64,000 nucleotides of DNA from Glaucostegus cemiculus (taxonomy: Eukaryota). Shown here one piece after another: positions 376 through 62,211 of this stretch. Each line of letters starts with the position of its first letter. The stretch's first letter is position 1. The DNA is taken from the NCBI GenBank assembly GCA_976551045.1, contig CDPCPM010000274.1:248001-312000 (forward strand), given 5' to 3'. A program made the position numbers and the translations under genes. The notes below the pieces were generated by a model, which did not search any database, was not told the DNA's origin, and saw only the letters and a program-made list of their open reading frames with translations.

Positions 376-402
376 CAAGCTGGATTCGTAGGAAAGTATT
401 TT
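376..402 (-). CDS. Microexon 40 (27 nt): ENTFLRIQL (module exon A)
   Basis: cacttgcttgtttcag|AAAATACTTTCCTACGAATCCAGCTTG|gtaagg. Confidence 0.85.
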
Positions 403-497
403 CTGAAACAAGCAAGTGGAATATGAATATTCAATATTGATAAAAGAAAAAATAGATGAAATCCCGTTATACCGAGTGCATTTCTACTAACGACTGC

Positions 498-589
498 AAA
501 TCATGACTCTCTTTTCCAATCGTTGACTGTAATATTCATTATTACAGTTGAATATTACAGTCAACGATTGGAAAACCGAGTCATGATTT
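498..589. repeat. Inverted repeat/hairpin, 41-bp arms (2 mismatches), 10-nt loop
   Basis: 498-538 is the reverse complement of 549-589 except for a 2-nt internal mismatch. Confidence 0.95.
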
Positions 590-701
590 TCTACTCACTG
601 TGATGGAACCATGGCAGTTTCATCAAAAACTTATAAGAATATCTCCAGTTCGAAGTAACATCAATAGAATTAAGCTGACTCATACGCATTATCAACATTA
701 C

Positions 702-719
702 CTCTTGCAGCTGAAGATT
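702..719 (-). CDS. Microexon 39 (18 nt): xSSAAR (linker)
   Basis: T8 tract+cag|AATCTTCAGCTGCAAGAG|gtaatg; ~300 nt before an A exon, the same layout as 20574/20290. Confidence 0.78.
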
Positions 720-1919
720 CTGAAAAAAAAGTTCAAGGAGATTGTGTTAAAACTCAAGATTGACGCCGGGGAATAAAATACAGGAAAAGTCATTAATAAA
801 AAAAAAACGCAATGTAGTTGAACTTTCCGACAGTGCAAGCAGAATATTTAAGCGAAACTGAATTTAAATAGCGCAAATAACTTTTTAAATTAGTGGAATC
901 GTTACTAGATCGGAATGCAGCAGAAGTTGAAAGCGATCAGGATAAACATATGATTATTGCTGGGAATCGGAAGATGTACGTTGTATGTGCAGTTGGCGCT
1001 ACGTATAGCTTCGACTGAAAATCTTGTAGATATGCCTAAGTTTTATTTTAACGCAATGGTGAAAATAGAAGGAAATAATATCATTAGTTCGTTCCTCACA
1101 ATTGTTTGCTTTTATTTTCCGCATTTTCCAGTTTGCCAGCCCAAAGTTTCAGGAGTAATGCACAATCTATGTTTCGAGTGGATATGCCACAGATAGAATG
1201 CAGAATTTGTTGCATCATAATTGAAAATATATGAAGAGCGGAATTTGAAGTACTGAAGTACGTTTAGAATTTGATTATTCCATTCAGAGAAGCCCGAATA
1301 CCTCAGTCACTATTTCACTAGAATATAGTATAACTGAGATAATAGCAGTCGACAAAACTTGACAAGGGCACGACATCATCATCAATGAGCCCATGTAATG
1401 TAAATCATAAAGACCAATTTTCCTCAAGGGAGGAAAAAAGGGGAAAAGATTTGAAGTAATTAGCTCCAAGGGATGTATTGGAGTAGGGACTTTTTTATTC
1501 GCCCATTGGAGACAGTGGCCTACAATTTGGTTGAGGCCTGGTCACATTTTACAAAGTACATGAATTTAGCTCTGTTTCGAATGTACGGAAATGACCAGTC
1601 GATTGACTTCTTTTTTCGTCAGAAATATTGGCTGATTCAATGAAAATTAAATATTACAGATATCTACTTTGGTCTTTCTAGAAGTTATATCGAACTGCAG
1701 ATACCTATGATCGTTAGCTAATCGAGCCGGAAACTATTTAGGCACAGGGTGTGATCGAAGAGAAACTTCTGGCAGTTTCCATCGAACAAATATCTGCAGA
1801 GGAATTGTCGTTTCCTGAGTTTAGTGAGCGTTGAAGAACTATCATGTACATTTATAACAAGTCCAGTCACCAATAATTCAGCACGGTGAAGCGGGTACAT
1901 TAACCCCCCAAGATATTGA

Positions 1920-3110
1920 TCGTAGACAGTGATAGTAATGCTATTGAATGTCAGCGGGTGATAGCTGCATCTCCGCTTGTTGCATGTAGTCATTTCCTGG
2001 CACTTGCGAGGCGCCAACGTTATTTGCTACCTACCATCCCAGGTCTGGATATTGTCCAAGTCTTGCTGCATTTTGTCGTGGACTTGTTCATCTTTAGAGG
2101 TGTCGTTAGTGGTTCTGGTCATCATGCAATCATCAGCAAACATCCTTACTCCTGACACTATAATGTAAGGAATACCTGAGGCTGAGATGATTGACCTTCA
2201 TCAACCACAACCGCCTTCGATTGTGCTAAGTATGATTCCATCCAGAGGATCGGTTCTCTCTGATTCCCAAGAAAACCAGTTTAGCCAGGGCTTCCTGATG
2301 CCATACTCGATCAAATCTCTTGATATCAAGAGCAGTTATTCTCACTTCACCTCTGGGGTTCAGTTTGATTGTCCATGTTTGGACCAAAGCTGTGCTGAAG
2401 TCAGGAGCTGAGCGGCTTTGGTGGAACCTATACAGAGCTTTTGTGAGCAAGTTGTTGCTACGCAAGTGCAGCTTGAAAACACTATTTATCCCTTCCATTA
2501 CTTTGCCAATAATCTATAGTAGATTAATGAGACAGTAATTGGCCGGGTTGGATTTGTCCTGCTTCTTATAGACAGGATATAGATAGCCAACTTTCCACAC
2601 TGTATGGTAGCTGCCAGTGTTATAGATTACGCGAATAGCTTGGCAAAGGAAGAGTCAAGTTCTCGGGCACAAAGTGGAATACTATTGCCGAAGTTTTTTC
2701 AGGGCCCATTGTTGTATCGAATGTCTTTCGTGTTTTCTTGATATCGTCTGTAGTGACTGGCATTTATCATGCTGGGGACCACTGGAGGAGGCCGAGATGG
2801 ATCAGCCAATCGGCACTTCTGCCTGAAGATTCTTGAAAATGCTTCAGCGTTTTCATTTTCACTGATGCGCCGGGCACCCCATCATTGAGAATAGAGATAG
2901 CTGTAGAACATCCTCCTGCAGTGGATGTTTTTACACCACCACCATTCACGATTGGATGTTGCAGAACTGCAGAGCATGGCCCTGATAGGTTGGTCGTACG
3001 ATCGATTAGCTTTGTCTATTGCATGCTGGTTATGTTGTGTGGCGTTCAAGTAGTCCTGTCATGTAGCTTCACGAGGTTGATTCCTCATTCTGAGGCACTC
3101 CGGCTGCTGG
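1920..3110 (-). mobile_element. Degenerate non-LTR retrotransposon (CR1/L2 superclade) RT fragment
   Basis: ORF 2226-2498 contains RT motif VRITALDIKRFDRVWHQEALAKL; frameshifts and stops; boundaries approximate. Confidence 0.85.
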
Positions 3111-3519
3111 AACACATGCGCTTTATAAGAAAATACAATGACCAATTGCACACTTTTTTTTCCAACCTGACAAGCGTACACTGAGACAGAAGAATTAACA
3201 AGCAGATTAACAATTATCTACCAACAATGGGAATGGTAAATAGAGGCAAGACGAGGATCTATTTCAGATATTCAGATCGATGAAATGAAATACCAAAGCA
3301 AGAATAATATCGTGTATTGATATGTTTGTTCGTGGGCACGAGAGAGGCAAAGGTACGGGAAAAATAGAAGAGACAGTGAAAGAGAATTACACCATTGTGA
3401 CCAAATGAAGTCGGAATGGAATCATCTCTTCCTGTCCAATCGTTTCATAAAGTAAAAGCAAATCTACCTGCAAATGACATAAATTTTTCACTTCCTTGGA
3501 GCTTTAATTCTATACTCAC

Positions 3520-3531
3520 GAGATGAACTGC
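3520..3531 (-). CDS. Microexon 38 (12 nt): GSSS (linker)
   Basis: gacttttatttattttag|GCAGTTCATCTC|gtgagt. Confidence 0.6.
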
Positions 3532-4691
3532 CTAAAATAAATAAAAGTCTCTATTATTTTCAAAGGCGTTGTTAGATTAACTTCGAATGAAACTTGCATT
3601 GAAATGCCAATCTGGAATATATTATAACTACCGATTTTGAAATAATTCAAGTTGCATAAATGTATTCGACGTCACTCTTTCAGTTACCACATACATTTTA
3701 AATAAACCAACAAATTTGGATGAAATTGTTTGATCAATACTTTCATATTCGTTGGTTTTCAGCAGGTGAAATTACAATTAAAGGCTTCTTATTACAGAGA
3801 AGAGGAGGAGAAAAGCTAGCATTTTAAGCCACAACATACGGAAGAGTAACACGAATTTTCTGAGGAGTACATAATTCAGTACGTGTTCGCCCTCACGCCT
3901 TTCCAGTGTGCTAAGGCACAGTAAGGAGGAAACATTGACGAAACCGCAAAGGACAAGGGTGCCCCGATTGCTTCAAAACATAAAAACTAAAACAATGTTC
4001 CCCACACTCCTCCGCTGGAATCGCGTAAAATTATTTGGCCTGAACTCTAATTCGCTGGAATCGACCACACAGAAAGTTAATTACAAAATAGAAAAGTCTC
4101 ATTATATTGCTGAGCAATTTGGAGAATAACCTGAAGGCAAGTACATCATTCATCATGGTTGGAAATCAGGTACACGCAAGTTACATCATGACCTCAGCAA
4201 AACGCGGAAAACTTGTTTTAGGCCTCTCTTAATGATGGAATATCACTCCTTCACAATCGAGACAACATACACCTCGCCCCTTTAATGTGTTTCAAATGCC
4301 AGTGCACTGAAATCACAAAACACAGGATCGTAGCTATTTCCAAATCACTTCCCATGGCAGCTTTCCACCATTCTTCCAAGGTGTGAGATTAATCCTGGGA
4401 GTTTCTTGGAGGAAGAAATTTAACATTTCATACCATGTAAACAGTGATGGCCGAAATTCTGTTTATAAGGTTTGCCAGTTTAAACCTCGCTTGGGAAAAC
4501 TTATGCTCACCTCTGTGGATAAATTTAAATAAATTATAGGTATTTTTTTCTTTACTTATTTACAGTGGGCCCGTCTTAACCATTTGCTGTAAGTCTTTGA
4601 ATTCTCAACAGAGAAACGGAAATAAGTTTGGCAGTGTATTAAAACAAGTCGGCATGTATTGAAATTCATACGAAACCGTACACAATTGTAC

Positions 4692-4733
4692 CTGTATCTT
4701 TTGGTGATCCTGTTCTGTTAGCTAATTGGCTTT
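4692..4733 (-). CDS. Microexon 37 (42 nt): ESQLANRTGSPKDT (extended module exon D)
   Basis: aacttgtttcag|AAAGCCAATTAGCTAACAGAACAGGATCACCAAAAGATACAG|gtacaa; ExQL start matches the D exons and follows a C exon as expected. Confidence 0.6.
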
Positions 4734-4819
4734 CTGAAACAAGTTTTTTTGAAAAAGAATTAGACAAACACATAACTAAACAGGAGATCAATAAGAGATA
4801 TTCCAGGCAGTTTATCTCA

Positions 4820-5190
4820 TGAATCAGAATCAGAGTCAGAATCAGAATCAGAATCAGAATCATTTTTATTGTCACAACCATACATAAGCACACAGTATGC
4901 ACAGGAGCGAGATACCGTCCTCAACAGGTGCACGTCACATTCAATTACAAGTAAAAACGACACACTGACACACACAAAAAAAACCCATAAACACCACGAA
5001 AATTAAATTAAATTCAGCAGGTTAAATAAATAGATTTAAAGTGAACGAACTGGTGGCGGGCATTTAAAGTGCTGGTGCATTTCTGAGCGCCTAGCACCCT
5101 TTAGTGTTAACAGGGTAGATGGAGGAATGAGAGAGTTCACAGATCTGGCGGCTTGCGGGAAGAAGCGATTGCACAGTCTCGTCATGAGTG
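4820..5190 (-). mobile_element. LINE 3' end with (GAATCA)n tail
   Basis: (gaatca)n followed by tttttattgtcac, and downstream gcttgcgggaagaagcg typical of fish LINE 3' ends; approximate. Confidence 0.55.
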
Positions 5191-5294
5191 TAACATGAAT
5201 AAAGAAGTAAATAAAGACGCGGAGAAATAAATAAATAAATAGCTAGATGAACAGGCAGACAAACAATTAATTAATAAGAAGCAAATAAAAATAA

Positions 5295-5348
5295 ATAGAT
5301 AGATATAGCTATGTAGATATGCAGATAGATAGATAGATAGATAGATAG
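5295..5348. repeat. (GATA)n microsatellite
   Basis: Directly visible. Confidence 0.85.
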
Positions 5349-5561
5349 GACCTTAAAATATACTTCACCGTTTGGAATTTATACGAAATTCCAAGAAAAT
5401 TACCTTCCATTTACAAGTTTTCTCATGGCAAACAATCACTCATAGAATTCGGCTTTGAATCTCGAGCCCTTTTTTTAAAATTTGGTGCATGTCAGCGTAG
5501 GATGCTCACTAGTTTAGCAATAGAACTGTTAAGAAAACCATTCAAAACCACATAAACGTAC

Positions 5562-5588
5562 CTAACATGCCAACTTTATGCTTCAAGT
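5562..5588 (-). CDS. Microexon 36 (27 nt): DLKHKVGML (module exon C)
   Basis: ctgtatgtttttag|ACTTGAAGCATAAAGTTGGCATGTTAG|gtacgt. Confidence 0.83.
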
Positions 5589-8080
5589 CTAAAAACATAC
5601 AGTACAAATTAATAAAGATATACACAGTACATTGTAAAATTGTAAAATTTGTGCATACTTTCTGTTTAATTTCTGTTTTTCTTGTGGATGTTATGTATCT
5701 GATGCTATGTGCCTGTGAGGCCAGTGAAAAATAAGTTTTTCACGGCATCTGTGTATGCATGTACTGCACATATGACAATAAACTCGACTTTGACGTTGAG
5801 ACGGCTGGAGTGTTTCACGTGAGATAATGACAATGGAACAGCAATGAGGACGTTTACAACGTTGTGAGGAATTCTTGGGAAAAGGTACGGATTTCATAGA
5901 TATTGGAGAACATGGCATATGGAACATTGTGGACACAGGCAAAAAAGGGAAAACTTTAATGCAATGGAGCCGAGAGTTGTCAAATTATCGTGCCATCTCA
6001 CTTTAAAAAACATTCAAATATAAAATGCTAAGAAAGCAATAAATAAAAGCAGCGACATTCCAAAAAATTCAATCGGGTGGAATGCAAACAATAACTAAAT
6101 TTCCAAAGGCACGTTTTCCGGAAAGAAACTAAGCGCTGCCGTGGTGTTTGGAGCATCGAGCTGCTTGCAAAGACGAATTAATCAATGACTTATTTCAATA
6201 TTAATACTGGAGGAAATTCTGGGGATATGTCTTCTGCTTAATCGTGGAAATCATGTAATCATATTTAAGTTAGCCTTCTATAAGTTTTAAATAACATAGA
6301 CGAAAGCAAAGAGTGTACAAACAGTGATCCATACAAACTGTGTTGGTAGACTTTCAACAGTGCAAGAGGTGACATGGCGGTGACATCGTCAACTAATATT
6401 AGAAAAAATAATGGTACACGAATGACACATAACTAGCGTATGACCTACTTTTAATGAGTATTTGAAAAGAAGTGCGGACAATTTTTAATGAATGAGCTTT
6501 ACATGTGACAGAAACGACGTTAAGATTTTGACTGTTACTTTTAAGAGAAAGGCAGTGCGTGGAGATTGTCACAATGACCTTGGCCATTCTACAGTGGTGT
6601 GCTGGGGCCAATTTACTTGGAATGTACCTTAACAATGTAGAAGTAAGAATAAAATATTTGTAAGTTACACGTTTTATGGCATGGGGAGAAGTGCAGGGGT
6701 TGCGATGGAGTGGCGCTGTATGAGCTCTAAGATGTTTCTTTTGTGAAAGATTGGGAAAATAATACAACGTCATTGGCTGATGGTTTTCAGCAAATTTGTG
6801 AGATTAAAAAAAGGTTGGAAATACTTGAAAAATAATCTCATATCGGTACAGGAAGGAAACACTCAGATCCGAGTACCCCAGACTAAGAAGACTGACGTAT
6901 GTCTCAACTGTTATAACAGACATTCATAATGTTATAACAGATGGTTTTGAAACATTTTTTAAAATGTGAAGAGGTATTTATTCTCCGCAATTTACGTAAC
7001 AGCATTATTTCAAACTTGCTGATCTCAGTCAGGGAGGAGCTTCATTCACATGTAAAGAAAACAAATTGACACTTCAAACAAATAGTATTTCTGTTTGCGC
7101 GATGTCGATGTTGCAGGGTCATTTTCCGATTTAAGCCACTTGCTCATGTGTTAGCTGATATCAAGATGAAATGTTACCAACGGAGGAAAACAACCCTTGA
7201 AGTTTCTATGACTTTCTTTTGAATATGAGGAGATTGTAATCGGAATGTTCGCAGCTTTTTGTGCATAAAAGTAGCACAGAATGTTAAATATTAGTTCTGC
7301 AAATGTTTCGCATTATGTGCTGAAGAGAATTCGCGGTTCAGTGATGTAAAACTGAATAATATTAAAATAACTGGTTATGCTCACTGCAAGAGAGGGAATT
7401 AATAAAATAAAATGTAAAAAAATAATCCAAGGATGTAAGAATAGAAACAGGTAGTGGGGAATATTAACTTTGACATGTGATTTGTCGGGCTGTACGACCT
7501 GGTTCGAAAGTACACGCTTCACAGTCGAATATTACTTACGTATTCCGGAAATCCAATCTCACGTTTGTTTTAGTATGTTTAATCAGATTCTAAATTCTAA
7601 AAATGTTTATTTTAGAAGACATCTTAACTTAAGGAAATACAAGATTTAGTCCACAATAAAAAGTCAGGTTGGGGGCGTTGCTTTTGGACAGTTTATTGTC
7701 AGTCTTAGAAAGTAGGACGTTCATGCTCAGAAGACAACGGATACAAAGAAGTCATGTGTGGCAAGAATAAAGCCATAGCGTTGGTAGCACACTCCAAGTA
7801 GCTGAGATGACTGCGTAACTTAAACGGACTACTCAAAGTTTTTTTTTTATTATTAACAGCTGAAAATCATCTATTTTCTTCAAAACCAGGGTGGTGTAAT
7901 TATACTATAGTTTTATGATGGTGACGCAAATATGATCTAAGTCATTCGATGATTTGTTACTGATATCAGAAGGACGGAATAATTTGCTTAGTTTTTCTTT
8001 TGGAGTGAAGAAAACAGAAGGCAATGCAAAGTATGAAGATCAGTATATTAAAATATGTGAAGCAACGTTAAGTAAATTAC

Positions 8081-8104
8081 CCCGTATTTCCTTCAATCTG
8101 TCAA
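8081..8104 (-). CDS. Microexon 35 (24 nt): VDRLKEIR (module exon B)
   Basis: tttttggtttatcag|TTGACAGATTGAAGGAAATACGGG|gtaatt. Confidence 0.8.
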
Positions 8105-8477: not shown

Positions 8478-8504
8478 CCAGTTCAATCCGGAGGCGGTCT
8501 TCTT
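8478..8504 (-). CDS. Microexon 34 (27 nt): EEDRLRIEL (module exon A)
   Basis: ctatttatattttag|AAGAAGACCGCCTCCGGATTGAACTGG|gtaaat. Confidence 0.85.
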
Positions 8505-9832: not shown

Positions 9833-9868
9833 CGTTGCCCACGTCTTGTCTTTTAACCTTAGTGCTCA
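9833..9868 (-). CDS. Microexon 33 (36 nt): VSTKVKRQDVGN (linker)
   Basis: ttcttttgttttatgttag|TGAGCACTAAGGTTAAAAGACAAGACGTGGGCAACG|gtgaga. Confidence 0.75.
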
Positions 9869-11864: not shown

Positions 11865-11899
11865 GGTATTCTCACCTGACCTTTGAGAACGATTCTTAC

Positions 11900-11932
11900 C
11901 TGATCTTTGAGAACGCTTCAGTTTATCCAGCT
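11900..11932 (-). CDS. Microexon 32 (33 nt): ELDKLKRSQRS; alternative in-frame donor would extend the exon to 11876
   Basis: acatctgatttcag|AGCTGGATAAACTGAAGCGTTCTCAAAGATCAG|gtaaga. Confidence 0.85.
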
Positions 11933-13165: not shown

Positions 13166-13192
13166 CAGCTTCTTTCTCATTAAGTTGGGGTT
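13166..13192 (-). CDS. Microexon 31 (27 nt): EPQLNEKEA
   Basis: tttatgttttatttacag|AACCCCAACTTAATGAGAAAGAAGCTG|gtacat. Confidence 0.82.
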
Positions 13193-14497: not shown

Positions 14498-14524
14498 CGC
14501 TGTCTTTATCTTTCAGTATTTTAT
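14498..14524 (-). CDS. Microexon 30 (27 nt): DKILKDKDS
   Basis: catttcaattcatcag|ATAAAATACTGAAAGATAAAGACAGCG|gtaggt. Confidence 0.83.
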
Positions 14525-14653: not shown

Positions 14654-14689
14654 CCATATCTTCAAAACTTCGTTTAGTATTCTCCAGTT
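14654..14689 (-). CDS. Microexon 29 (36 nt): ELENTKRSFEDM
   Basis: atgtttcattcatcag|AACTGGAGAATACTAAACGAAGTTTTGAAGATATGG|gtgagt. Confidence 0.87.
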
Positions 14690-15300: not shown

Positions 15301-15327
15301 CCTGTCCTTTTTGTCTGAGCTGAGCTT
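15301..15327 (-). CDS. Microexon 28 (27 nt): EAQLRQKGQ (module exon D)
   Basis: ttatttatttcccgcag|AAGCTCAGCTCAGACAAAAAGGACAGG|gtgagg. Confidence 0.85.
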
Positions 15328-16649: not shown

Positions 16650-16676
16650 CTAAATCATTAAGGCTTCTTTTGTGGT
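16650..16676 (-). CDS. Microexon 27 (27 nt): DHKRSLNDL (module exon C)
   Basis: atctttattttcag|ACCACAAAAGAAGCCTTAATGATTTAG|gtgagt. Confidence 0.87.
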   Translation of the reverse strand, partial: TTKEALMI

Positions 16677-19092: not shown

Positions 19093-19116
19093 CTTTGGCT
19101 TCTTTAATCTTTGAGA
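19093..19116 (-). CDS. Microexon 26 (24 nt): VSKIKEAK (module exon B)
   Basis: ctgcatgtttccttag|TCTCAAAGATTAAAGAAGCCAAAG|gtaatt. Confidence 0.83.
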
Positions 19117-20289: not shown

Positions 20290-20316
20290 CAAGTTGCAAG
20301 CGAAGAGTTTCAATTC
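20290..20316 (-). CDS. Microexon 25 (27 nt): GIETLRLQL (module exon A)
   Basis: ttctttactcttcattag|GAATTGAAACTCTTCGCTTGCAACTTG|gtagag. Confidence 0.82.
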
Positions 20317-20573: not shown

Positions 20574-20591
20574 CTGCAGTATTTCGCTTAA
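20574..20591 (-). CDS. Microexon 24 (18 nt): VKRNTA (linker)
   Basis: ttgtgattattttcag|TTAAGCGAAATACTGCAG|gtgagg. Confidence 0.78.
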
Positions 20592-26966: not shown

Positions 26967-26993
26967 CGCTACTTCGTTGGCATTCTTCGAGTT
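26967..26993 (-). CDS. Microexon 23 (27 nt): ELEECQRSS
   Basis: tttttcttttattttag|AACTCGAAGAATGCCAACGAAGTAGCG|gtacga. Confidence 0.82.
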
Positions 26994-27377: not shown

Positions 27378-27404
27378 CTTTAACTTTTTTTTTCAACTTT
27401 CCTT
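27378..27404 (-). CDS. Microexon 22 (27 nt): EGKLKKKVK
   Basis: catcatgtaactacag|AAGGAAAGTTGAAAAAAAAAGTTAAAG|gtaaga. Confidence 0.78.
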
Positions 27405-27932: not shown

Positions 27933-27968
27933 CGGTACTTTGTAGATTGTCTTTCAATTTTTCTAGTT
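27933..27968 (-). CDS. Microexon 21 (36 nt): ELEKLKDNLQST
   Basis: atacgcttatttccag|AACTAGAAAAATTGAAAGACAATCTACAAAGTACCG|gtgaga. Confidence 0.87.
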
Positions 27969-30056: not shown

Positions 30057-30092
30057 CTTTTTCTTGTTGATTTAGGTGCAGCCTATCCAATT
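30057..30092 (-). CDS. Microexon 20 (36 nt): ELDRLHLNQQEK
   Basis: cattgtcttaattttag|AATTGGATAGGCTGCACCTAAATCAACAAGAAAAAG|gtacat. Confidence 0.82.
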
Positions 30093-31000: not shown

Positions 31001-31027
31001 CATTATCTTTGGCGAGCAGTTCTTGTC
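31001..31027 (-). CDS. Microexon 19 (27 nt): xQELLAKDN
   Basis: gggtttttttcag|GACAAGAACTGCTCGCCAAAGATAATG|gtactt. Confidence 0.8.
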
Positions 31028-32390: not shown

Positions 32391-32417
32391 TCGTAGATTC
32401 ACGAAGAGCATGCAGTT
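32391..32417 (-). CDS. Microexon 18 (27 nt): ELHALREST
   Basis: tactctttttcttcag|AACTGCATGCTCTTCGTGAATCTACGA|gttagt. Confidence 0.75.
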
Positions 32418-32536: not shown

Positions 32537-32563
32537 CCGCCCTGAGTGCATCTAATCGCTCAT
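32537..32563 (-). CDS. Microexon 17 (27 nt): DERLDALRA
   Basis: gtgttgtattttacag|ATGAGCGATTAGATGCACTCAGGGCGG|gtatgt. Confidence 0.82.
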
Positions 32564-33293: not shown

Positions 33294-33317
33294 CACTGCC
33301 CATCAAATTGTCCTGGT
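33294..33317 (-). CDS. Microexon 16 (24 nt): DQDNLMGS
   Basis: gttctttttaactacgcag|ACCAGGACAATTTGATGGGCAGTG|gtgagt. Confidence 0.78.
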
Positions 33318-33480: not shown

Positions 33481-33507
33481 CTGCTTCCAGAATGATAACC
33501 CTTTGTT
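33481..33507 (-). CDS. Microexon 15 (27 nt): EQRVIILEA
   Basis: cctaattttactcaacag|AACAAAGGGTTATCATTCTGGAAGCAG|gtaaac. Confidence 0.78.
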
Positions 33508-34235: not shown

Positions 34236-34271
34236 CTGAAATTTGAAGCATTCTGTTCAGTTCGGCTTTTT
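34236..34271 (-). CDS. Microexon 14 (36 nt): EKAELNRMLQIS
   Basis: T-tract+ccag|AAAAAGCCGAACTGAACAGAATGCTTCAAATTTCAG|gtgcgt. Confidence 0.83.
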
Positions 34272-36768: not shown

Positions 36769-36795
36769 CTCTATCTTTTAACTCTTTCTCTTTTT
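36769..36795 (-). CDS. Microexon 13 (27 nt): EKEKELKDR
   Basis: cctttgattctttgcag|AAAAAGAGAAAGAGTTAAAAGATAGAG|gtaata. Confidence 0.83.
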
Positions 36796-39658: not shown

Positions 39659-39685
39659 CTGAAGTTTTAATAAGATTTTCCAGCT
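39659..39685 (-). CDS. Microexon 12 (27 nt): ELENLIKTS
   Basis: tcattacttcacttaacag|AGCTGGAAAATCTTATTAAAACTTCAG|gttcgt. Confidence 0.78.
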
Positions 39686-40300
39686 CTGTTAAGTGAAGTA
39701 ATGATAACAACAATGAAAAAACAAACAAACACGTTATGCACCACTTTGTAGACGTGACCACCTGATAAAAGTATGCTGTGTTTATTCCGTGGTAAATGAT
39801 TGGCAATGTATCATACCAGTTGAGTGATAATGAACAGCAGATCAAGGAGCAGAAAAGAAATCTCATGGAATTGTTTCGCACAAACCCATTCGGTTCATTT
39901 TAATATTAAAACAAGTTTAGCTTTATTACAGTTTCGCAGAGAACTCTGGCTTGCTTAATTGCACAGTCATCTTATTCCTGGTTTCCACACCTGCAACATC
40001 AAAGTAAAAAAAAAAAAATACAGGAGATCAGATGTCAGCGTATCCGACAACAGCATCCACTGGTGAACTTAATGCTGATTCCTACAGCACTTCACATCTG
40101 GGCAGAACGGAGCTTTCGGGAGCAATTCGTATTTACCCCATTAGCGTGGCACCAGGGACGGAGTAATCTTGAATAGAAGCGTACCTTCAGGTAACGGTCT
40201 TTGTTTTTATTTTAAAAAATGATTTGATTGATTTGATGAACAAAGTTGCTTTTAAACGAACGCATCTAATAACCTATTTATTTATTTATCCATTTATATA

Positions 40301-42591: not shown

Positions 42592-42618
42592 CTCTCTGCT
42601 TTTCAAACATCTGATTTT
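42592..42618 (-). CDS. Microexon 11 (27 nt): ENQMFEKQR
   Basis: gttttctttgcttacag|AAAATCAGATGTTTGAAAAGCAGAGAG|gtaatg. Confidence 0.85.
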
Positions 42619-45930: not shown

Positions 45931-45954
45931 CTCTTTCTTGATATTTGTTCAGTT
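45931..45954 (-). CDS. Microexon 10 (24 nt): ELNKYQER
   Basis: tcaatttatctttccag|AACTGAACAAATATCAAGAAAGAG|gtaaat. Confidence 0.83.
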
Positions 45955-48162: not shown

Positions 48163-48189
48163 CATTCATTTTCTCTTTCAACTGGTCTT
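48163..48189 (-). CDS. Microexon 9 (27 nt): EDQLKEKMN (module exon D)
   Basis: ttctctttgtttacgcag|AAGACCAGTTGAAAGAGAAAATGAATG|gtaaga. Confidence 0.87.
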
Positions 48190-49975: not shown

Positions 49976-49979
49976 TGAA

Positions 49980-50256: not shown

Positions 50257-50309
<53 letters not shown>

Positions 50310-50348
50310 ATCTATCTATCTACCTACCTACCTACCTACCTACCTATC
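50257..50348. repeat. Compound (CT)n-(CTAT)n-(CTAC)n microsatellite
   Basis: Directly visible at the SINE tail. Confidence 0.92.
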
Positions 50349-51387: not shown

Positions 51388-51414
51388 CTAAATTTTCACG
51401 TACTCTCTCGAGAT
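51388..51414 (-). CDS. Microexon 8 (27 nt): DLERVRENL (module exon C)
   Basis: cctgtgctttcttttag|ATCTCGAGAGAGTACGTGAAAATTTAG|gtaggc. Confidence 0.83.
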   Translation of the reverse strand: MSREYVKI

Positions 51415-53060: not shown

Positions 53061-53084
53061 CTTTTACTTGAGCAACTTTGTTAA
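53061..53084 (-). CDS. Microexon 7 (24 nt): INKVAQVK (module exon B)
   Basis: gtatttgtttattttag|TTAACAAAGTTGCTCAAGTAAAAG|gtaata. Confidence 0.82.
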
Positions 53085-55096
53085 CTAAAATAAACAAATA
53101 CAATGAATTTAGTTGCATCCAACGATCTATTTTTCGTGATGTTAAATACTTATTTACACAGTAACACTATACAGAATACCCAATAAGTAGTTAGAGCCTG
53201 TTCCGTTTAGGTGAATCATTTTTGTGTTCGGAAATCCCGTAAACGTTTGGTGGCTAAAAAGTAACGTCGGAGGGGGCGGGGTGGGGGGAACCATAAAGCT
53301 CATTAATTCCAGCAGAGTTTTTCCGATTTATACTGACAAGTTTGATGATACTGGTGGAGTTGCACCTCGCAAAATCTGCTCTCTGGGGATATATTTGTAA
53401 TATTATACCGAATATTAAACGATATATCTTCTGTCTTGTGTAATTGCATGGAGACAATAATACATCTTTCTTCCCTTTCCAGTGACGTAGTTTTGGAGAG
53501 ACATGGACACTGTCGACTTTAAACTAGGTTCGGAGAAAGTACGAGGACAAAGTTATCCATGTGACTCCGAAAATATCAACATTTGTCAACCAAGGAAGAC
53601 AGCTAGATTCGACCACATTTTGCCGTGGGAAATTATTCAACAATGTATTGTAGTCACAATTTAGGCGAGGAAAATATGCATTTTTGTTGTTGGTGAACAA
53701 GGTGTATTATCAACGCGTCATGCATAATGGAATGGATGTGTGAATTTGTTCTGAGAGAACAGTTAAATGGGAACAAATACACCATTTCTTATTATTGGAA
53801 CAGTCAGTTAAATATAGATTAATTATCAAACGATAAGAACAACAAATTTAATAACGGATATTCTGTTTGGTAACAGGTACTGGCTGTTTGCTACTTCATA
53901 AGTTTCATTCATGTAGTTTGAATGAGAACGTCAAAGCAGAAATCGAGACATAACAAAAATAATCAGGCGTCTTCTGCATAGTCCTATGCATGTTATTCGA
54001 TCAGATGATTGCATCTTTGTCAAAGTACCTTGCGATAGAATGTCCAAGGAAATCGCGGTAAAATTTCCGTGTTGGGAGAATGCGAAGGAAACTTGACAGT
54101 GGTCATCTAAATTTGCAGGGATTTAGTTTTGCAACTTTGAATTCACTCTGGTTAGAAATAAACTAAATCAAACATTGTCATTGATAATGGACAAAGTGGA
54201 ATAAGTAATTGTCTACGGCAAAACCAAAGTGGGTTGTGTGTTTCATCAAACAGTAAGCAATGATATAGTTCTGAAGATTTTACTGAGAACAGAATGAAAG
54301 TCTGGAAATGTCGTCTCAATGTTATTGTGATTTTCCAATGAGAAGCCGCCGAAACGCGTATTAATATTGTTTAAATAGAAAAGGCAACAGGGAAACGTGT
54401 CGTGTTTGAGTATCTTTAACGCAACAGTGTAAGTCCAACGGGGCTTCAAGAAAATAAGAAAAAAATGAGGTTCTTTATATGATAGAGAAAACCATGCAAG
54501 TCCTTAAAAGGCCAGACTTTCTGGAAGCATTGTGTTGTTTTATTTGCATTCTTTGGGGAAAATATCCAGGATTGTTGAAGGGGAAGGGGTGTGTCGAAAG
54601 AGGTGTACTTTCCCTTTAATTATTTGGAAGCCTGCGCCAGTGCATGGAGGCCCGAAATCCTGGAGAGGTGCGTTCAAGGTGATGGGGAAAATGCTCGGGG
54701 TGGAAAAAGGCCTTTTCTGCTCTAAAACAATGAAAGAAACAGATAAACAAACTAAATCATAACGTGTCAAAAGGTCTTTGATAATAGTTTGCGATTTGTT
54801 TTGTCATTAATCTACCACAGAGTTGACTGAGATATAATAAACAGAAGGACCTCCATGGGTGTGCCTGCTATTAATTAACGCATTGAAATTCGCAATGGAT
54901 GGTGACAAAAACGGGTAGCATCTTACCCAGCACACTTTATGAGCAGATTTAAAAATAAACTGGTAGACACTTGAATGAAGTGAATATTGGGTAATTTTTC
55001 TGATAGATTTATAAAAATATATATTTGCATGCTTTGCTTATTCCACACAGCTTAATTTAAGATAAAAGAATTTCAGAACAACAACTGATACTTTAC

Positions 55097-55123
55097 TGAA
55101 TTGTATGCGGAGGACATCATTCC
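55097..55123 (-). CDS. Microexon 6 (27 nt): xNDVLRIQF (module exon A)
   Basis: tttgttttattgcag|GGAATGATGTCCTCCGCATACAATTCA|gtaaag; similar to exons at 20290, 8478, 376. Confidence 0.8.
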
Positions 55124-56699
55124 CTGCAATAAAACAAATGTAAACAGTCATCTGGTACATTTAAATAAGGAACATATACAGATATTGAATGCCGCACATA
55201 AAAAATGGAGGAAAAAGCAGATTTTCTTTTCACTTGTTGTAAAGAGCATTCTGTCTTCACTGTCGCTGCAATTTCCATTGCAGCTGTTGAGGAACTGAAA
55301 GGCAGTCAGCTCCCGAAGTCGCTATCCTCAGTGCTCCACTCCCCGCAGCAATCTGCTCTGACCGAGAGATTCGCTCTGCCTGCATTGCCAGAACTTGAAC
55401 TTCACGCTATCATTCCCATTCCCAAGTAGACTTCACGAAGTGCAGTGGGCCACGAGTGCCGATCAGCCTCTCCTATGTGCAAAGGACGGAATAATTCTGC
55501 CAAAGTCCTTATACATCATTTGAACTGCCTGTGGCGACCAGCTTCAATTGAGAAGCAGCTCAAAATGGCTTCAATAATTCTGAATATATATGCTGTCTAT
55601 TATATTATCTGGTATCAGCAATCGATTACATGTTTACTGAACGAAAATTATGAAGTAAAAAACACATCACTTGCCTCCAAATATGCATCCATTCATGGAC
55701 CAGTTCCAATTAAATTAAAGGGGATTGCATCAGTTACGCCAGCCATGGCAGTTGCACTGCAGCTGGCGTAAAACTGGCACATTCAAAGGAAATCTGTCTA
55801 AGCTACTCTGCATATCGGTGCGACTTACACAACTGAATTACGTTGACCTTTCACCTCCAGTCTGATGCTAACTCTTCGTGTTTCAATGCGGAATCATGGA
55901 ATTGGAAGTTAACCTGATCAGCGAGGTGGCGATAGCGACCCATCACCATCGAGCTGCTTGTCAGAGAACAACACTGCTTAACCCAATGTATCTGGATGCC
56001 AAATCTGGACAAGAATCAGAATATAGTTTGGCGTCATCGGAAATCCAGCTCTTTCACTGGTATCTCCGAGTTTTGCTCATTTTTTGTGGAAACCGTAATT
56101 GTTGCCTTTGATGCTTGTGGCTCTGCAACAGCAGTCCATCCCTTTTCGGCACCTGTAGATCTTCTGCTATGCATGTATATCCATTTAGGCAGTTTGTCAA
56201 ACTCATGTCGCGAGTAGTTCACATTGCCCCAAGCTATTATGTATGATCTGGAACATTGCAAACATATCAGCCAACCACTTCATTTAACTATATCAGAATG
56301 AACTAGGTTCGATGAATGGAATTGTATCCATAATTAGGCAATGCAAATCAATCCGTTAATTAGAGATAGCAAAGGATAGAAGACAGAAGAATATATATGA
56401 CTTAATAAGTATCTGCTGCCACCATATTACATTCATTGTGCTTGTAAGTTATTGCTTCTCACCTTAGTTTCAGCAACTTTTCATTTGTGAAAATCTAATT
56501 TGGACGGAGTTTTAGAGAGCAAAATTCCATCGATGTACACAATTGAGCACCATGTACAGCATATGTTGAGCCGTGTTAGGAGTACAAAGGGAAGAATAAG
56601 ACTTCCACAAGAATTTTAAAGTCTTTAACCAAGAGAAAGACGACTATTTAGACAGCGTGTCTTGAGCTGCGCTCTGGTAGCTTAAAATCCGGTGGCATG

Positions 56700-57130
56700 A
56701 ACACTGAATTTTCTAGTTTCCGGCAACCCACACCGGGTGTTCTCCTTCCACATACGTTCACCTGTTCACGTAGTTTTCTTCCCTTTGTTTATCTCTTTCA
56801 TTCGTTCCTACACCTGGTTCCCTCTGTCCATCATCCCTTCACCATCAGTCTTCACCTATCGACCACCAGCGTCTCTTCAACAACTCTCCACCTGGTTCCA
56901 TCTGCCCATCGATTCCGTCACATTTGGTTCCAACTACCAGCTCCCTTCCCGTCTCCTTCTTATCGCCATATACCAGCGATCGTTTCTGTTACCTCTCAGT
57001 TCTGATGTGTTGTCTCGATCCGAAACGACCACTTACACCTTTTCCCTCCACAGATGCTGCCTGACTACTGAGTTCTTCAAGTGTTCTATATTTATTCTAG
57101 ATTCCAGCAACTGCAGTCTATTGTATCTGC
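56700..57130 (+). mobile_element. Chondrichthyan repeat terminus (Penelope-like family), pyrimidine-rich
   Basis: ccgaaacgacc...cacagatgctgcctgactactgagttcttcaag...gattccagcaactgcag; opposite-orientation copy at 60410-60860. Confidence 0.55.
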
Positions 57131-57368
57131 AGTTTATTTTCAATGTAATTCCTGCAACCATCTCATAATTAGCGTTATTTGAAAAGTTAATTCATTTAAC
57201 ATAAACGTGTTTTAATCAATATATTTCAGGAATATTTAATGAATACTGATGACGTTATTGTAGATTTAAATATAATCCAATTCTTAGGAACATTATTTCA
57301 TCGATGAACTTCCAAGGCATTGAAGGGCGCAAGCCCGTAAAGGAATATAACTATCGTTCGCGACAAAC

Positions 57369-57380
57369 GCGTGTTCCGAG
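57369..57380 (-). CDS. Tentative microexon (12 nt): ARNT
   Basis: ggattctgctttaccag|CTCGGAACACGC|gtttgt; occupies the linker position before an LRIQ-type exon, as the 12/18-nt exons do elsewhere; weak donor. Confidence 0.35.
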
Positions 57381-57484
57381 CTGGTAAAGCAGAATCCAAT
57401 TCAATACATTTCGCTGCAATTTGGCATGACTGGGCAATAACTGTAGCCCATGTTTCTGCATTTTATTATTGCTGAGCGTATTAC

Positions 57485-57520
57485 CGGGTGTGGAAAGACT
57501 TCTTCGCGTCCTTAAAACAT
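57485..57520 (-). CDS. Microexon 5 (36 nt): DVLRTRRSLSTP
   Basis: tacgttattaacag|ATGTTTTAAGGACGCGAAGAAGTCTTTCCACACCCG|gtaata. Confidence 0.72.
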
Positions 57521-58055
57521 CTGTTAATAACGTATTAAAATACAAAGTTAGTGATACGAATTCTCTTCAACTGTTAAGCATATTTTGTACTTTTCCCTTT
57601 TCGAATGAGCAACTTATAGTTTTAGTATCTTTTGATTCCAAGACGAAGGGTCTAAATTTAGGTGATAGGAAATACAACGTAATCATTTATTTTTTTATTG
57701 GGTGACAGAAGTGGTTTTGAACAGTAAGTTCAGAGACGAAAAGAAAGATCAAACCCTATATTCATCCTTTGTCCTTCATTGCAATTGTGTAATAAGTAAT
57801 AGTCTAAAATTGCCAGAAAAATCGTAGGTAAGGTAAGTTTAAAGCCCTTTGTAGGCTACACATTCAGAAAGGAAATATTTCTTCTTGCTTTAGATTTGTC
57901 TTCAGCGTATTTACAAATATTTCATGTGATATTGATGAACTTTTATTGAAAGAAATGAATTATTTTAGCTACCCTAACTCTTTAATGAGGAAATAAATGG
58001 TGGCCAAGTTTCCAAACCGTACTTTGCAACAACGAACAATTTCTAAATTTTTCTA

Positions 58056-58150
58056 AAAGACGTACGGGTAGGTTAATTTGGGGGCTTAAAATGGGCGGCG
58101 CGTACTCGTTGGGCCGAAAGGGCCTGTTACCACGCTGTAAATAAAATTAA
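58056..58150 (+). mobile_element. 3' fragment of SINE (same subfamily as 26118)
   Basis: aaagacgtacgggtaggttaatttgggg...gggcctgttaccacgctgtaaataaaatt matches the reverse complement of the 26118-element tail. Confidence 0.75.
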
Positions 58151-58748
58151 AGAAAAATAACAGGTATAAGACAATGCTGAAGATTGCCACTGGGAAGATT
58201 AAACTCATTTAGTATATCAAGTATGATAAGCTGATATAAAAATGCTTTCCATAATATTGTTCACGACAGTACATATGCTTTATTCATAATATATATTTTT
58301 GCTGATAATAATTATCTCAAATTCGATCCTCAGCAAAGGGGCTCGCGGCATATGAAGCTAGTATTTGGCTTTGGATCAGTCATCCCTGCATTTGGAAGTT
58401 TCTGTCAAAGTCATGGATTCTTTCCCAACGGTTGTTATTTGTTGACCATGGGAACGTAAATAACACATGGAATCATGGTAATGGGGAATGTACCAACTCA
58501 GATCAGTGTGATAATACAATGAAATACATCGGTGAAGAAATATATTCTGGAATAAGGCGAATGACGTTCACTATGGACAATACCCACACAAGAGAATCAC
58601 AAGGGAAAGAAGAGGTATGATCCTGATGACAATCAACACATCAGCTTCATGAACATAACTGAAATTATATATTTTGACACTGTATACATTTAGGAATATT
58701 TTGTTTTTTTATTATAAAGTTATCACTTTTTGAAGAGTTTGTTTTTAC

Positions 58749-58775
58749 CTTTATCTCTTTGCTTTAGGCTTTCCT
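58749..58775 (-). CDS. Microexon 4 (27 nt): QESLKQRDK
   Basis: gccttattgaacaacag|AGGAAAGCCTAAAGCAAAGAGATAAAG|gtaaaa. Confidence 0.8.
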
Positions 58776-59140
58776 CTGTTGTTCAATAAGGCAAATTAAA
58801 TGAACTGTCTAAAATTCACTGGTTATTGTGAACAAATGCGTGTATACATATGGGTTGAAGCATATGAATAAGAGCACCTTGAAGAGATCTATATCGTTGA
58901 TTAATTGATAAGTGCATATCTTTCCGTTTTCTCAAAATTTGTAGAAATGTCCGAATGAGGGCAGGATTTGAATGTCGTTTAAGAATATTCAAGTAAAATA
59001 AGAAAAGATACTCAGGTACACTACTTGCTCCAACTTTACAAAACGATACTGTGGGGAACCAGGGGACATTTGTTTGTGAAAAAACATCTATGGCAACATT
59101 TTACTTCGCTTGATTTAGTTTCTGCAAAGTTATTACTCAC

Positions 59141-59176
59141 GGGTCATTTGCAAAGTTTGCTTCAAAGACGTCAATT
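59141..59176 (-). CDS. Microexon 3 (36 nt): ELTSLKQTLQMT
   Basis: aatttatttttcag|AATTGACGTCTTTGAAGCAAACTTTGCAAATGACCC|gtgagt. Confidence 0.85.
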
Positions 59177-60409
59177 CTGAAAAATAAATTTTAAACATTC
59201 TTAACTTAATTTTCTGTCCAGGCTTGACTATTCTGATTCAACTAATCTATAATACTGAATCCTGAAGAACATTTACGCTGGCATCATTGGAAAAGTACTT
59301 ACCAAAATTCTCTTGGCACATGAAATATCTTCAAGTAAAAGTAAAATAATCTTGCAGCGCGAAACCTGCTCTCGTCTTTTTTTTTTAACGTAATAGCTGT
59401 TGTTTACTTAAAGCTACCATTATTTAGATTCCCAAGTAGTCTCAGCCGTTACCCCGTCCAATGACACGGGAAATCTAGCCAAATATTTCACCCTTATGAT
59501 TTTCAGTTGATGATGAGAGCACCTCAATATTGGGTGTAGTTTTCAAAACACAATGGTCGTATCAGCAATGGTACGAATATATGTGGGACAGGGATTTTTA
59601 ACTGACAACATGAAGGTTGCTTTTCCAGCATGAACCAGCCAAATGCAGAAAGGGTAAACAATCAGATTTTGAATCATACCACCATAGAGTTGTAAATTGT
59701 GGCTAAAACCCAGAAGGTAAGACACAACAAACGTATTTAAAACAACATAACCAAAATAATTTAGTTAACACGTACAGATAAAGTATGATCAGAAAGAGGG
59801 AAACACGCATCTTAGGTTTCTCTATTTTTTAATAAAGGTCGGTGACCCCGTTTAAAGCAATGATTGACTTGCGATTTACAACTGGGGCCCCATCAGAATT
59901 ATCTTGTCACCAAAGTTCGGGAATTTGCTTCCGCTCTGCATTCAAATTCTGAGCGTGAGTCAAGATAAGATGCATTTGACCCCACGCTTGATAATGTCTT
60001 GAATAACCCAGCATAATTTTCTGAGATACCTGTGGATGTGGTACATTAAACTAACAAAAAACATTATGAAACTATTTTAGATATCGATAGATTATTTCTT
60101 TCAGTACGCGCACACAAACAGGTTCCATGCTGTCGAGCACGCTTTCTGTAACACAATATACGCAGAGTGGATCACAATTTAAAATTCTTAGGTAGCGCAC
60201 AAAATGTCTCGCATACGTCTACCAGGAAACCTATTGCATTACATTACGCTCTGCTTTGTATCTTCTCTGCGGATATGCGGCTTTCGTGAAACTGTGTGAC
60301 TTTCCACGAATAATTAGTCTTAACCTGTCTGAGGCTCATACTGATATAAAGAATATACCACTGTTAATTACATTCAACAATGATATCATATAAAACATGA
60401 AAAACACTA

Positions 60410-60860
60410 TGATGCTGGAGGACCTCAGCAGGTCATGCAGCATGTGTGGAGAAAAGCAGGCGGTCAACGTTTCGGATTAGGACCCTTCTTCACGACTGAA
60501 TATAGCAAAAAGGGGAGCCCAATATATAGTCGGGAAAAGAAGAACAGTGATAGGTGGACAAAAGAGGGGAGGCGATGTGGGCACAAGGTGGTGATAGGTA
60601 GATGTAGGTAACAGATGGGTGTGGGGGAGCGGCAGAAAACAGAACCACTGGGCAATGAGCGATGAGTATGCAGGTGCGGGGGAGGTGCAGAGAGCAGATC
60701 CACTGCGCGATGGGTCAAAGGTAAGGAGAGAAAGGAATTAAAAAAAGGGAGAAACAAGAGAAAAAGGCTAGGAAAGGGGAGAAAAGAAGCATGGTGGGGT
60801 TGGTATGTGGGGAAGTGTGTGGAGATTACTTAGAGTGGGAGGATTAAATGTTCATGCAAG
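60410..60860 (-). mobile_element. Chondrichthyan repeat terminus (Penelope-like family)
   Basis: gatgctggaggacctcagcaggtcatgcagcat...aacgtttcggattaggacccttcttca then purine-rich tract; smaller relics near 23830, 30490, 33150. Confidence 0.6.
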
Positions 60861-61070
60861 ATCTCCGGTATGTTCACTCTATCCACGCTATCTCCAGTAC
60901 GTTCACTGCATCCATCAAATCTCTGATATCAGATAAAAGATTCAATCGAATGTATGGATACATTAACGATTATTTGGAAGGTTCCAATATTAGCTGTGTA
61001 AAGATAGTTCATCAGAATAGAATGTTGCTCTTTAATAAAAAAGTAAGTATTTTTTCCTCGATGTACATAC

Positions 61071-61097
61071 CCCTTTCTTTCTCATTGCAGGTGTCTT
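61071..61097 (-). CDS. Microexon 2 (27 nt): EDTCNEKER
   Basis: gctatttcccgctttag|AAGACACCTGCAATGAGAAAGAAAGGG|gtatgt. Confidence 0.82.
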
Positions 61098-61418
61098 CTA
61101 AAGCGGGAAATAGCATTCATATTAATAGTTATTTTCTAGCATCATGGAATTGAGTAATTCAGTTTTAAATACCTGGTGATATTCCATTCAAAGGCATATG
61201 AGAAATGATTGCACGCAGAAAGCAGCACATTTTGTGGAAGGAAGAATTTGCCTATCTGTCTTGCAGTATCAGAAATAATGAGAGAAATCATTCTCACAAT
61301 TTACATCAGTTGTATTTATCAGTATATCATTTTTTTATAACTTCCCCGATATGTGACAGTTTACTTAACTACTTATTCCAAAATCCTAAGTGAGTAATTT
61401 TTTCCCCTAGTTTTCTGT

Positions 61419-62072
61419 GTGTCCTCACACATAAGCCACTGGCAGTAAATATGCAGCCATGGCAAACGAGTGGGAACGAAACGATTTCAAGCGCTTATTG
61501 CAGGAAATTTAATGCGATGGTTTTTGTTTTGTTACCAAGCGATAGCTTTTGAGTGTTATAGCTATTATTCTCGAAAATTCTGCAGATCCTTGAGCGGTTG
61601 CCAGAGACGGGAAGGAAAGAAATATAATGATAAGTGTCGAGAAAAATGAATTAACAAAGTACAGACAGCCTCAGCTCATTCCGCTTGAAAAATTTTCATC
61701 GGTAAGGAATTTGTAACTTAGCACTTAGTAAATAACAGCGGATTGGTCAAATCAACATGTAAAGAAAAGCTGGAAGTCAGGACTGGGAAACCCATTAGAA
61801 TTGACAAAGCTTAACTGGAGAATTTGCTGCCCCTTGACTTTCAGCGTGCCTCGATTGAATGTGAAATTATATAAAGTTATCCAACGATAGGAAACCTGAA
61901 AGTAGGCATTTTTAAGCAATCAATTGAAAAGTTTTTGTTTTCAGTAGGGCCCGGGTGTCCTCACACATAAGTTACTGACTGTAAATATGCAGCAAATGAG
62001 TGGGAATGAAACGATTTCAAGCGCTTATTGCAGGAGTTTTAATGTGATGGTTTTTGTTTTGTCACCAAGCGA
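61419..62072 (+). repeat. Local direct duplication: 61419-61542 and 61955-62072
   Basis: gtgtcctcacacataag...aaacgatttcaagcgcttattgcagga...accaagcga present twice; second copy has a 6-nt deletion. Confidence 0.92.
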
Positions 62073-62175
62073 CATATGTTAACTTCCGTAACATAGAAGG
62101 TGAAAATCCGAAAATGACCTTTGAAAATTATCATAAAAACACAGTACTAAAATGAAAACAAAAATTCTTTCTTAC

Positions 62176-62211
62176 CCGAATGCTTCAGCCTTTTCTTCAG
62201 TTGTTCTATTT
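62176..62211 (-). CDS. Microexon 1 (36 nt, phase 1-1) of coiled-coil microexon gene: xIEQLKKRLKHS
   Basis: cattgcctttccag|AAATAGAACAACTGAAGAAAAGGCTGAAGCATTCGG|gtaaga. Confidence 0.85.

Follow-up and report, generated by a model that had tools for sequence, protein, structure and literature searches.

Do some forty segments of 12-42 nucleotides (nt), scattered over 64 kilobases (kb) of DNA from Glaucostegus cemiculus, form part of one gene and, if so, what would that gene encode? The question is raised by the minus strand of the window, i.e., the whole analysed stretch of 64,000 nt (positions 248001-312000 of contig C274; genome of 2.85 Gb). We found that the window is a real, selected, and probably expressed segment of a gene, here called gene B, which belongs to an elasmobranch family without prior description. 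The explanation that we consider best, and hold to be rather probable, is that the window lies in the middle of a chain of about 420 kb which specifies one long cytosolic coiled-coil rod, likely a spacer or tether. Gene B has a tandem paralogue, gene A, on the same contig and a further relative on contig C125. On contig C274 the array is organized as follows:

C274:100005-525030 (5' end 525/519k), minus strand, gene B microexon chain, contains the whole window
C274:546030-598025, minus strand, gene A, tandem paralogue upstream of gene B, outside the window
C274:546547-546030, minus strand, B30.2 (PRY-SPRY) exon of gene A, splits the microexon array into genes A and B

Microexons of the window

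An earlier note on this DNA had listed 40 minus-strand segments between window positions 62211 and 376, each 12-42 nt long, flanked by AG and GT, divisible by three and open in phase 1. We checked them with splice-site scans (generic, then locus-trained, then relaxed), and all were found again. The first scan, performed with an untrained generic splice matrix and blind to the earlier list, accepted segments of 9-45 nt with strict AG-GT borders. It returned 29 strict segments on the minus strand (21 divisible by three, 20 open in phase 1) and 12 on the plus strand (three and three, respectively), while 40 dinucleotide-resampled windows held on average 1.6 segments that were divisible by three and open in phase 1, with a maximum of 3. 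Hence, neither the plus strand nor shuffled DNA, both named in the earlier note as places where a similar chain would speak against the gene, yielded anything comparable.

The locus-trained model recovered 34 of the 40 listed segments unaided and relaxed scans located the other six. Three relaxed-scan exons end in A or C; three exons (57520, 4733, and 3531) scored below the threshold, were matched by eye to the earlier list and were added by hand. The 40 segments sum to 1125 nt, exactly the joined length given before, and addition of a GC-donor candidate (39990-39955) brings the window to 41 exons, 1161 nt and 386 amino acids (aa) with no stops. The peptide is dominated by L, E, K, R, and Q and holds three prolines. 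In the 40 exons the residues completed across the junctions are E (20), D (7), G (4), V (4), Q (2), I, K, and R (one each). The window exons are purine-rich (64% vs. 49%), and their GAA density is three times the background.

Selected reading frame and exon order

The reading frame was assessed on segments of 24, 27, and 36 nt chosen by splice signals, with no translation filter. In the window (n = 17), stops in phases 0, 1, and 2 numbered 11, 0, and 9, and in the whole gene B chain (n = 111) 56, 2, and 56. The same was seen on C125 (n = 73; 43, 0, and 37), which had been left out of splice-model training, whereas segments from antisense DNA (n = 9; 5, 5, and 3) showed no phase bias. Among paralogous exons, nine pairs matched by their neighbors only gave a proportion of synonymous differences (pS) of 0.77 and of nonsynonymous differences (pN) of 0.40; this estimate is limited to the nine context-paired exons, as the flanking introns of duplicates can no longer be aligned. 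The scarcity of phase-1 stops, although synonymous sites between paralogous exons are saturated and only 2 of 245 self-matches have exons on both sides, indicates long-standing maintenance of the frame. The exons of gene B are under purifying selection on one reading frame, and gene B is almost certainly a functional coding gene.

The order of the exons carries a signal of its own. The hydrophobic power at period 3.5 was 21.0 in the window (38 exons, the three added by hand being omitted) against 10.7 ± 2.8 in exon-order shuffles, none of 1000 reaching it. For gene B it amounted to 23.6 vs. 11.0 ± 1.1 (0 of 300) and for C125 to 23.3 vs. 11.4 ± 1.5 (0 of 200). As no exon had been selected by its neighbors, this junction-spanning heptad register independently supports a reading of the exons in genomic order.

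The gene B microexons of the window are listed below from 5' to 3' (window coordinates), with the way each was called:

62176-62211, minus, 36 nt, splice model
61071-61097, minus, 27 nt, splice model
59141-59176, minus, 36 nt, ends in C, relaxed scan
58749-58775, minus, 27 nt, splice model
57485-57520, minus, 36 nt, below model threshold, hand-added
55097-55123, minus, 27 nt, ends in A, relaxed scan
53061-53084, minus, 24 nt, splice model
51388-51414, minus, 27 nt, splice model
48163-48189, minus, 27 nt, splice model
45931-45954, minus, 24 nt, splice model
42592-42618, minus, 27 nt, splice model
39955-39990, minus, 36 nt, candidate with GC donor, relaxed scan, absent from the earlier list
39659-39685, minus, 27 nt, splice model
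36769-36795, minus, 27 nt, splice model
34236-34271, minus, 36 nt, splice model
33481-33507, minus, 27 nt, splice model
33294-33317, minus, 24 nt, splice model
32537-32563, minus, 27 nt, splice model
32391-32417, minus, 27 nt, ends in A, relaxed scan
31001-31027, minus, 27 nt, splice model
30057-30092, minus, 36 nt, splice model
27933-27968, minus, 36 nt, splice model
27378-27404, minus, 27 nt, splice model
26967-26993, minus, 27 nt, splice model
20574-20591, minus, 18 nt, splice model
20290-20316, minus, 27 nt, splice model
19093-19116, minus, 24 nt, splice model
16650-16676, minus, 27 nt, splice model
15301-15327, minus, 27 nt, splice model
14654-14689, minus, 36 nt, splice model
14498-14524, minus, 27 nt, splice model
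13166-13192, minus, 27 nt, splice model
11900-11932, minus, 33 nt, splice model, donor region inside a tandem duplication
9833-9868, minus, 36 nt, splice model
8478-8504, minus, 27 nt, splice model
8081-8104, minus, 24 nt, splice model
5562-5588, minus, 27 nt, splice model
4692-4733, minus, 42 nt, weak acceptor, hand-added
3520-3531, minus, 12 nt, ends in C, hand-added
702-719, minus, 18 nt, splice model
376-402, minus, 27 nt, splice model

The 33-nt exon has its 3' end and donor repeated by a tandem duplication of 24 nt (window 11868-11919), which creates a second donor and an in-frame 57-nt form. Three lower-scoring minus-strand candidates, divisible by three and open in phase 1 and outside both exon lists, lie at window 29399-29367, 23203-23177, and 36977-36957; the second of these is rich in Ser, Gly, and Asp and could be a hinge.

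Extent and growth of gene B

A first model of contig C274 positions 1-662k placed 193 exons on the minus strand vs. 2 on the plus strand, nearly all within 100k-598k. Gene B itself pools 240 exon candidates over about 420 kb (2,282 residues, 1.6% coding, median intron of 1.3 kb), of which 122 are of 27 nt, 70 of 36 nt, 20 of 24 nt, 15 of 18 nt and 13 of other lengths; weak true exons were probably missed too. The proposal of the earlier note, a cartilaginous-fish microexon gene encoding a long coiled coil, is supported by these data, yet its account was incomplete. The window covers only about one-sixth of the chain, with some 215 kb more upstream and 148 kb more downstream; the gene is no orphan, having B30.2-ended paralogues in the same genome, in Narcine and in catshark; and its design is already known, on a small scale, from the tails of BG and butyrophilins.

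Gene B grew by duplication of multi-exon blocks. It contains a 32-exon internal duplication, and the block at contig 390-336k is a duplicate of that at 204-147k. These events are old, since synonymous sites are saturated and introns no longer alignable. Two minus-strand segments of 27 nt, at contig 191644 and 189766, have strong splice signals and starts like those of the family, and carry in-frame stops; they could mark a gene boundary or be either poison exons or exons that have decayed. For a candidate last exon at contig 102370, no match was found among 1.84 billion representatives, and it was rejected as the end of the gene, a microexon being present further downstream at 100031.

Paralogues and the elasmobranch family

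Gene A consists of a short Met-bearing exon, about 35 microexons and then the B30.2 exon. It can be aligned with gene B (contig 232-176k) one exon after another, with a score of 101 vs. 31-44 in three shuffles, and the exon classes are the same in both; by this exon-level alignment the 27/36-nt phase-1 chain of gene B is homologous to the rod of the family. For the B30.2 of gene A, the best paralogue lies on C125, where the plus-strand chain upstream of the B30.2 comprises 168 candidates over about 460 kb (about 1,670 residues; 18 candidates antisense), often in strict 36/27 alternation. Direct exon alignment of gene B with C125 stays within the range of shuffles (58 vs. 45-58); their link therefore rests on the shared design and on the B30.2, through gene A. 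A short Met-bearing phase-1 exon at C125:1243862, resembling the first coding exon of gene A, is a candidate start of the C125 gene. Upstream of that chain, at C125:1107886 and 1232964 (plus strand), lie single-exon open reading frames (ORFs) of about 300 codons which by eye resemble multi-pass G-protein-coupled receptors. A genome-wide search with the exon pattern gave 10 matches on C274, 2 on C125 and 8 scattered ones (4 for the reversed control), and because of this concentration only two such loci are recognized, unlike the large TRIM arrays.

In public databases, the family is represented only by short computed RefSeq models, which are usually guided by RNA sequencing, under stand-in names such as zinc-binding protein A33-like or TRIM39-like. 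The closest B30.2 matches of the paralogues are proteins of the electric ray Narcine (74% and 82% identity). Narcine bancroftii XP_069775384-90 match gene A: on XP_069775384, 20 of 35 exons are colinear (120 of 169 residues identical), and gene A exons cover 189 of its 206 N-terminal residues. XP_069797409/11 match the 3' part of the C125 chain, and a catshark protein, XP_038668997, is also related. Between Narcine isoforms, the differences amount to 6, 9, 16, and 9 residues, the 9- and 16-residue steps being whole exons found here. The B30.2 domains of gene A, C125, two Narcine proteins and one catshark protein group in a single clade (100/100) that excludes the 25 other rows sampled, most of them TRIMs, in a tree that had no outgroup and one Ig-bearing B30.2 row, with 9 of 36 search matches omitted. 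Against solved structures, the family B30.2 scores best with butyrophilin 3A (BTN3A; 91 bits), followed by TRIM21 (72 bits).

Searches for other domains

We found a C-terminal B30.2 in gene A and C125, but tblastn detected none, intact or degenerate, inside or downstream of gene B. In the protein P0005, Pfam recognized only PRY and SPRY. No immunoglobulin (Ig) F-strand motif was present on the coding strand, although a very divergent Ig exon could escape such a search. Similarly, there was no Ig family among 106 ORFs of at least 58 aa from the C274 end intervals (two repeat-tract ORFs omitted), no Ig match of two Ig-bearing queries and, in what is a weak test, the 150 V-set candidates that were scored, out of 1645, included none from C274 or C125. 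A hydropathy scan of spliceable phase-1 exons in three 5' intervals gave no transmembrane exon for gene A or B and one repeat-like match for C125; the Narcine family models start directly with the coiled coil, as does gene A. Neither the locus ends nor the Narcine models showed a RING or B-box, the sole match of a RING/B-box query being an unrelated RING gene at contig 51k. As no Ig, transmembrane or RING exon was found, the product of gene B is predicted to be cytosolic.

Heptad register and the proposed rod

The exons of gene B are frame-neutral blocks of mostly 9 or 12 residues, neither of which is a multiple of a heptad. The register is held by combinations, namely 12 + 9 = 21 residues (three heptads), 8 + 9 + 9 + 9 = 35 (five heptads) and 12 + 6 + 12 + 9 = 39 (four heptads and one unit of 11 residues). 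From one 36-nt exon to the next, the spacing is 0 or 4 residues modulo 7 in 43 of 69 cases (reached in 0 of 2000 shuffles), and exons of this class are hydrophobic at positions 2, 5, and 9 in 84, 80, and 69%, respectively. The first 490 residues, about the 5' fifth of gene B, show a charge period of 19.5 residues (z score of 11 vs. a 95% null maximum of 4), which neither the part within the window nor gene A or C125 displays. At C274:519k-432k, this alternation of acidic and basic residues is carried by the 39-residue exon module (12-6-12-9). Since duplication of such a module would yield the same charge period, actin binding is a lead only. The 28-residue charge period of myosin-like rods is absent (z score of -1.4).

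If spliced in order, the roughly 240 symmetric phase-1 microexons would give one cytosolic protein of about 2,300 residues. At the coiled-coil rise of 0.148 nm per residue, the length of its rod would be about 340 nm. The chains would pair as a parallel two-chain coiled coil, to judge from the tails of BG and butyrophilins as analogues, and rod length would be tuned by skipping whole exons, as isoforms of the paralogues in Narcine suggest. The B30.2-bearing paralogues would supply a ligand-binding tip that gene B is without, and the rod would act as a spacer or tether on cytoskeleton or membranes.

Several observations weigh against one continuous gene with full inclusion of its exons. The splice model used for exon calling was self-trained on the gene B locus, and the joined model carries one junction stop, so that at least one of the 240 candidates is false; together with the plus-strand background, this stop suggests that about 10-20 of the calls are. 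The first and last exons could not be fixed from the sequence, and no transcript or protein record was matched to gene B: the Atlas search with the rod gave no match at ≥0.9, and a comparison of the Narcine gene A rod with longer proteins gave none among 2827 candidates. Gene boundaries could lie at the stop-bearing segments (191644/189766) and at gaps of 11-18 kb. Moreover, the Narcine paralogue models are short (280-378 aa) and omit many of the exons found here. With these points taken into account, a single transcription unit of at least 200 exons still seems to us the likelier arrangement of gene B, while the role of its product as a structural spacer or tether is plausible at slightly less than even chance. 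The fullest version of the proposal, in which one 420-kb gene of more than 200 constitutive or skippable microexons founds an ancient cartilaginous-fish family of giant rods, with an exon-length register code, a splicing ruler, 5' modules gripping actin and paralogues capping the rods, is doubtful as a whole.

Genomic neighborhood and base composition

Both microexon loci lie in sharply bounded domains (C274:100k-600k and C125:1154k-1714k) with a GC content of about 0.36-0.43. Their CpG observed/expected ratio is mostly 0.6-0.8 vs. 0.2-0.5 in the flanks, and this weak CpG depletion suggests long-term low methylation in the germline. Directly downstream of gene B lies nurim (C274:80k-84k; Atlas 0.91), a gene listed in the human major histocompatibility complex (MHC) class I region (PMC1309616). 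Directly upstream of gene A (C274:610k-653k) are two genes in divergent orientation, one with an RNA recognition motif (RRM) and zinc knuckle according to Pfam, both of which we take to be RBM4-like, and a cluster of TRIM genes with RING, B-box, and B30.2 is located further upstream at contig 781-842k, within the interval 781k-873k. The combination of nurim and the TRIM cluster makes a link to the MHC region possible, on a single marker.

Alternative explanations

The boundaries of gene B may be drawn differently. Genes A and B could form one unit in which the B30.2 is an alternative last exon, giving a short tipped rod when used and a tipless rod of about 2,600 residues when skipped. The two genes share strand and phase, and the frame of the closing microexon of A would fit that of the foremost candidates of B. 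Contig 546k-519k yielded nothing convincing as a first coding exon of B, and a single continuous low-GC domain without CpG depletion spans both genes. Yet, 21-27 kb devoid of microexons separate them, the alignment of A falls on an interior block of B, as expected of a duplicate, and all five Narcine gene A isoforms cluster with the B30.2-ended model and are of similar length; we regard the fusion as unlikely. In the opposite arrangement, the chain would be made up of at least two shorter genes in tandem, like the chicken BG genes; this would fit the block duplications (e.g., contig 390-336k vs. 204-147k), the recurrence of 24-nt exons after a similar 27-nt exon, like the start of gene A, the two stop-bearing exon-like segments near contig 190k and the short Narcine models. 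However, no internal B30.2 exon occurs in gene B or in the 460-kb C125 chain, and the start-like exon pair is also found inside gene A, where the Narcine model reads through it; the tandem cluster is unlikely too, if slightly less so than the fusion. That gene B is a decaying duplicate, or the chain a product of chance or artefact, would agree with the missing B30.2 end, the lack of a matching protein record and the two stop-bearing segments; given phase-1 stops in 2 of 111 splice-only picks vs. 56 in each other phase, despite saturated synonymous sites, it is exceedingly improbable.

As for function, the product might serve innate immunity as a RING-less, TRIM- or butyrophilin-like scaffold, with exon skipping varying the rods that present B30.2 sensors or modulate TRIMs. 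The B30.2 of the paralogues, with its best structural matches to butyrophilin 3A and then TRIM21, nurim and the TRIM cluster as neighbors, and the selection for variation in BG tails (PMC5938342) all point in this direction. Conversely, there are just two loci, their B30.2 is well conserved with Narcine and gene B has none; loss of one exon of 9 or 12 residues by skipping leaves the frame intact and shifts the heptad register, which fits modular length tuning better than free shuffling; and one MHC marker is weak synteny. We judge an immune role to be a minority possibility, on a par with the tandem cluster. The structural role is favored over that of an immune sensor because the two loci are conserved rather than a diversifying array and gene B has no sensor domain.

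Significance and comparison with known systems

The two loci, each of about half a megabase, contain some 240 and 170 microexon candidates, respectively, and annotation hardly registers them; for instance, the Narcine RefSeq model of the C125 gene has 280-289 residues, in contrast to the chain of about 1,670 residues found here. Our search of the literature on microexons, coiled coils, B30.2, and elasmobranchs (mostly non-subscription papers, supplements excluded) found no paper on these genes. If it is one gene, gene B is probably among the most microexon-rich genes of vertebrates. If the predicted splicing is true, it offers a natural setting in which to study how hundreds of consecutive exons of 18-36 nt are recognized by the spliceosome, and how protein geometry (heptad register), beyond the reading frame, selects exon length.

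In BG genes, according to PMC5938342 and PMC8813856, the tail is a coiled coil made from many tiny exons of 21 nt, the first codon of which is split one-plus-two, its length varies by splicing, and a zipper protein derived from BG regulates actin and myosin 1 in the manner of tropomyosin. The heptad region of gene B is likewise built from tiny split-codon phase-1 exons. Yet each 21-nt exon of chicken BG holds one heptad, whereas the 27-, 36-, 24-, and 18-nt exons of gene B keep the register only in combination; moreover, chicken BG lacks B30.2 and has a signal peptide, IgV and a transmembrane exon, none of which was found for gene B. Judged by exon numbers, the gene B chain is roughly ten times longer than that of BG genes.

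Butyrophilin genes (BTN/BTNL) possess small phase-1 exons before the B30.2, and the succession of heptad repeats and B30.2 is shared with the family, the B30.2 of whose paralogues scores best against BTN3A. Their heptad region is short, however, while the family has a rod of hundreds to thousands of residues with no IgV, IgC or transmembrane exon found, and gene B is without B30.2. Butyrophilins have been reported in cartilaginous fishes, and heptad numbers vary in those of squamates (PMC12841164). As no Ig or transmembrane exon was found, gene B is not a BG or butyrophilin by membership. The enterophilins of guinea pig, cytosolic proteins with a long leucine zipper and a C-terminal B30.2, have the same layout as gene A and C125; these mammalian proteins are set beside the family by description only. 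Enterophilin-1 binds SNX1 and alters surface EGFR (PMC13749957). TRIM proteins share the coiled coil and PRY-SPRY with the paralogues but differ in their RING and B-box, which were not found in the family, and the family B30.2 stands outside the sampled rows, mostly TRIMs. The family is thus not TRIM, its RefSeq names being stand-ins.

Two further systems resemble gene B in one respect each. The microexon genes (MEGs) of Schistosoma, with a coding sequence composed mostly of symmetric microexons and with skipping variants (PMC4015677), share with it the symmetric microexons only, no homology being implied, and they encode small secreted proteins with signal peptides, whereas the product of gene B would be far larger. 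Tropomyosin has bands of 19-20 residues and pseudo-repeats of 39-40 residues (PMC4714992); compared by periodicity only, the 5' 490 residues of gene B share the period of about 19.5 residues and the 39-residue module, yet the repeat runs along the whole tropomyosin rod and is confined to the 5' fifth of gene B.

The family has thus not been described before, while its design is of a known type, that of the BG and butyrophilin tail, which in sharks and rays appears to exist as a free giant protein. Such free giant rods bear on the origins of BG tails, of enterophilin-type proteins and of orphan B30.2 domains.

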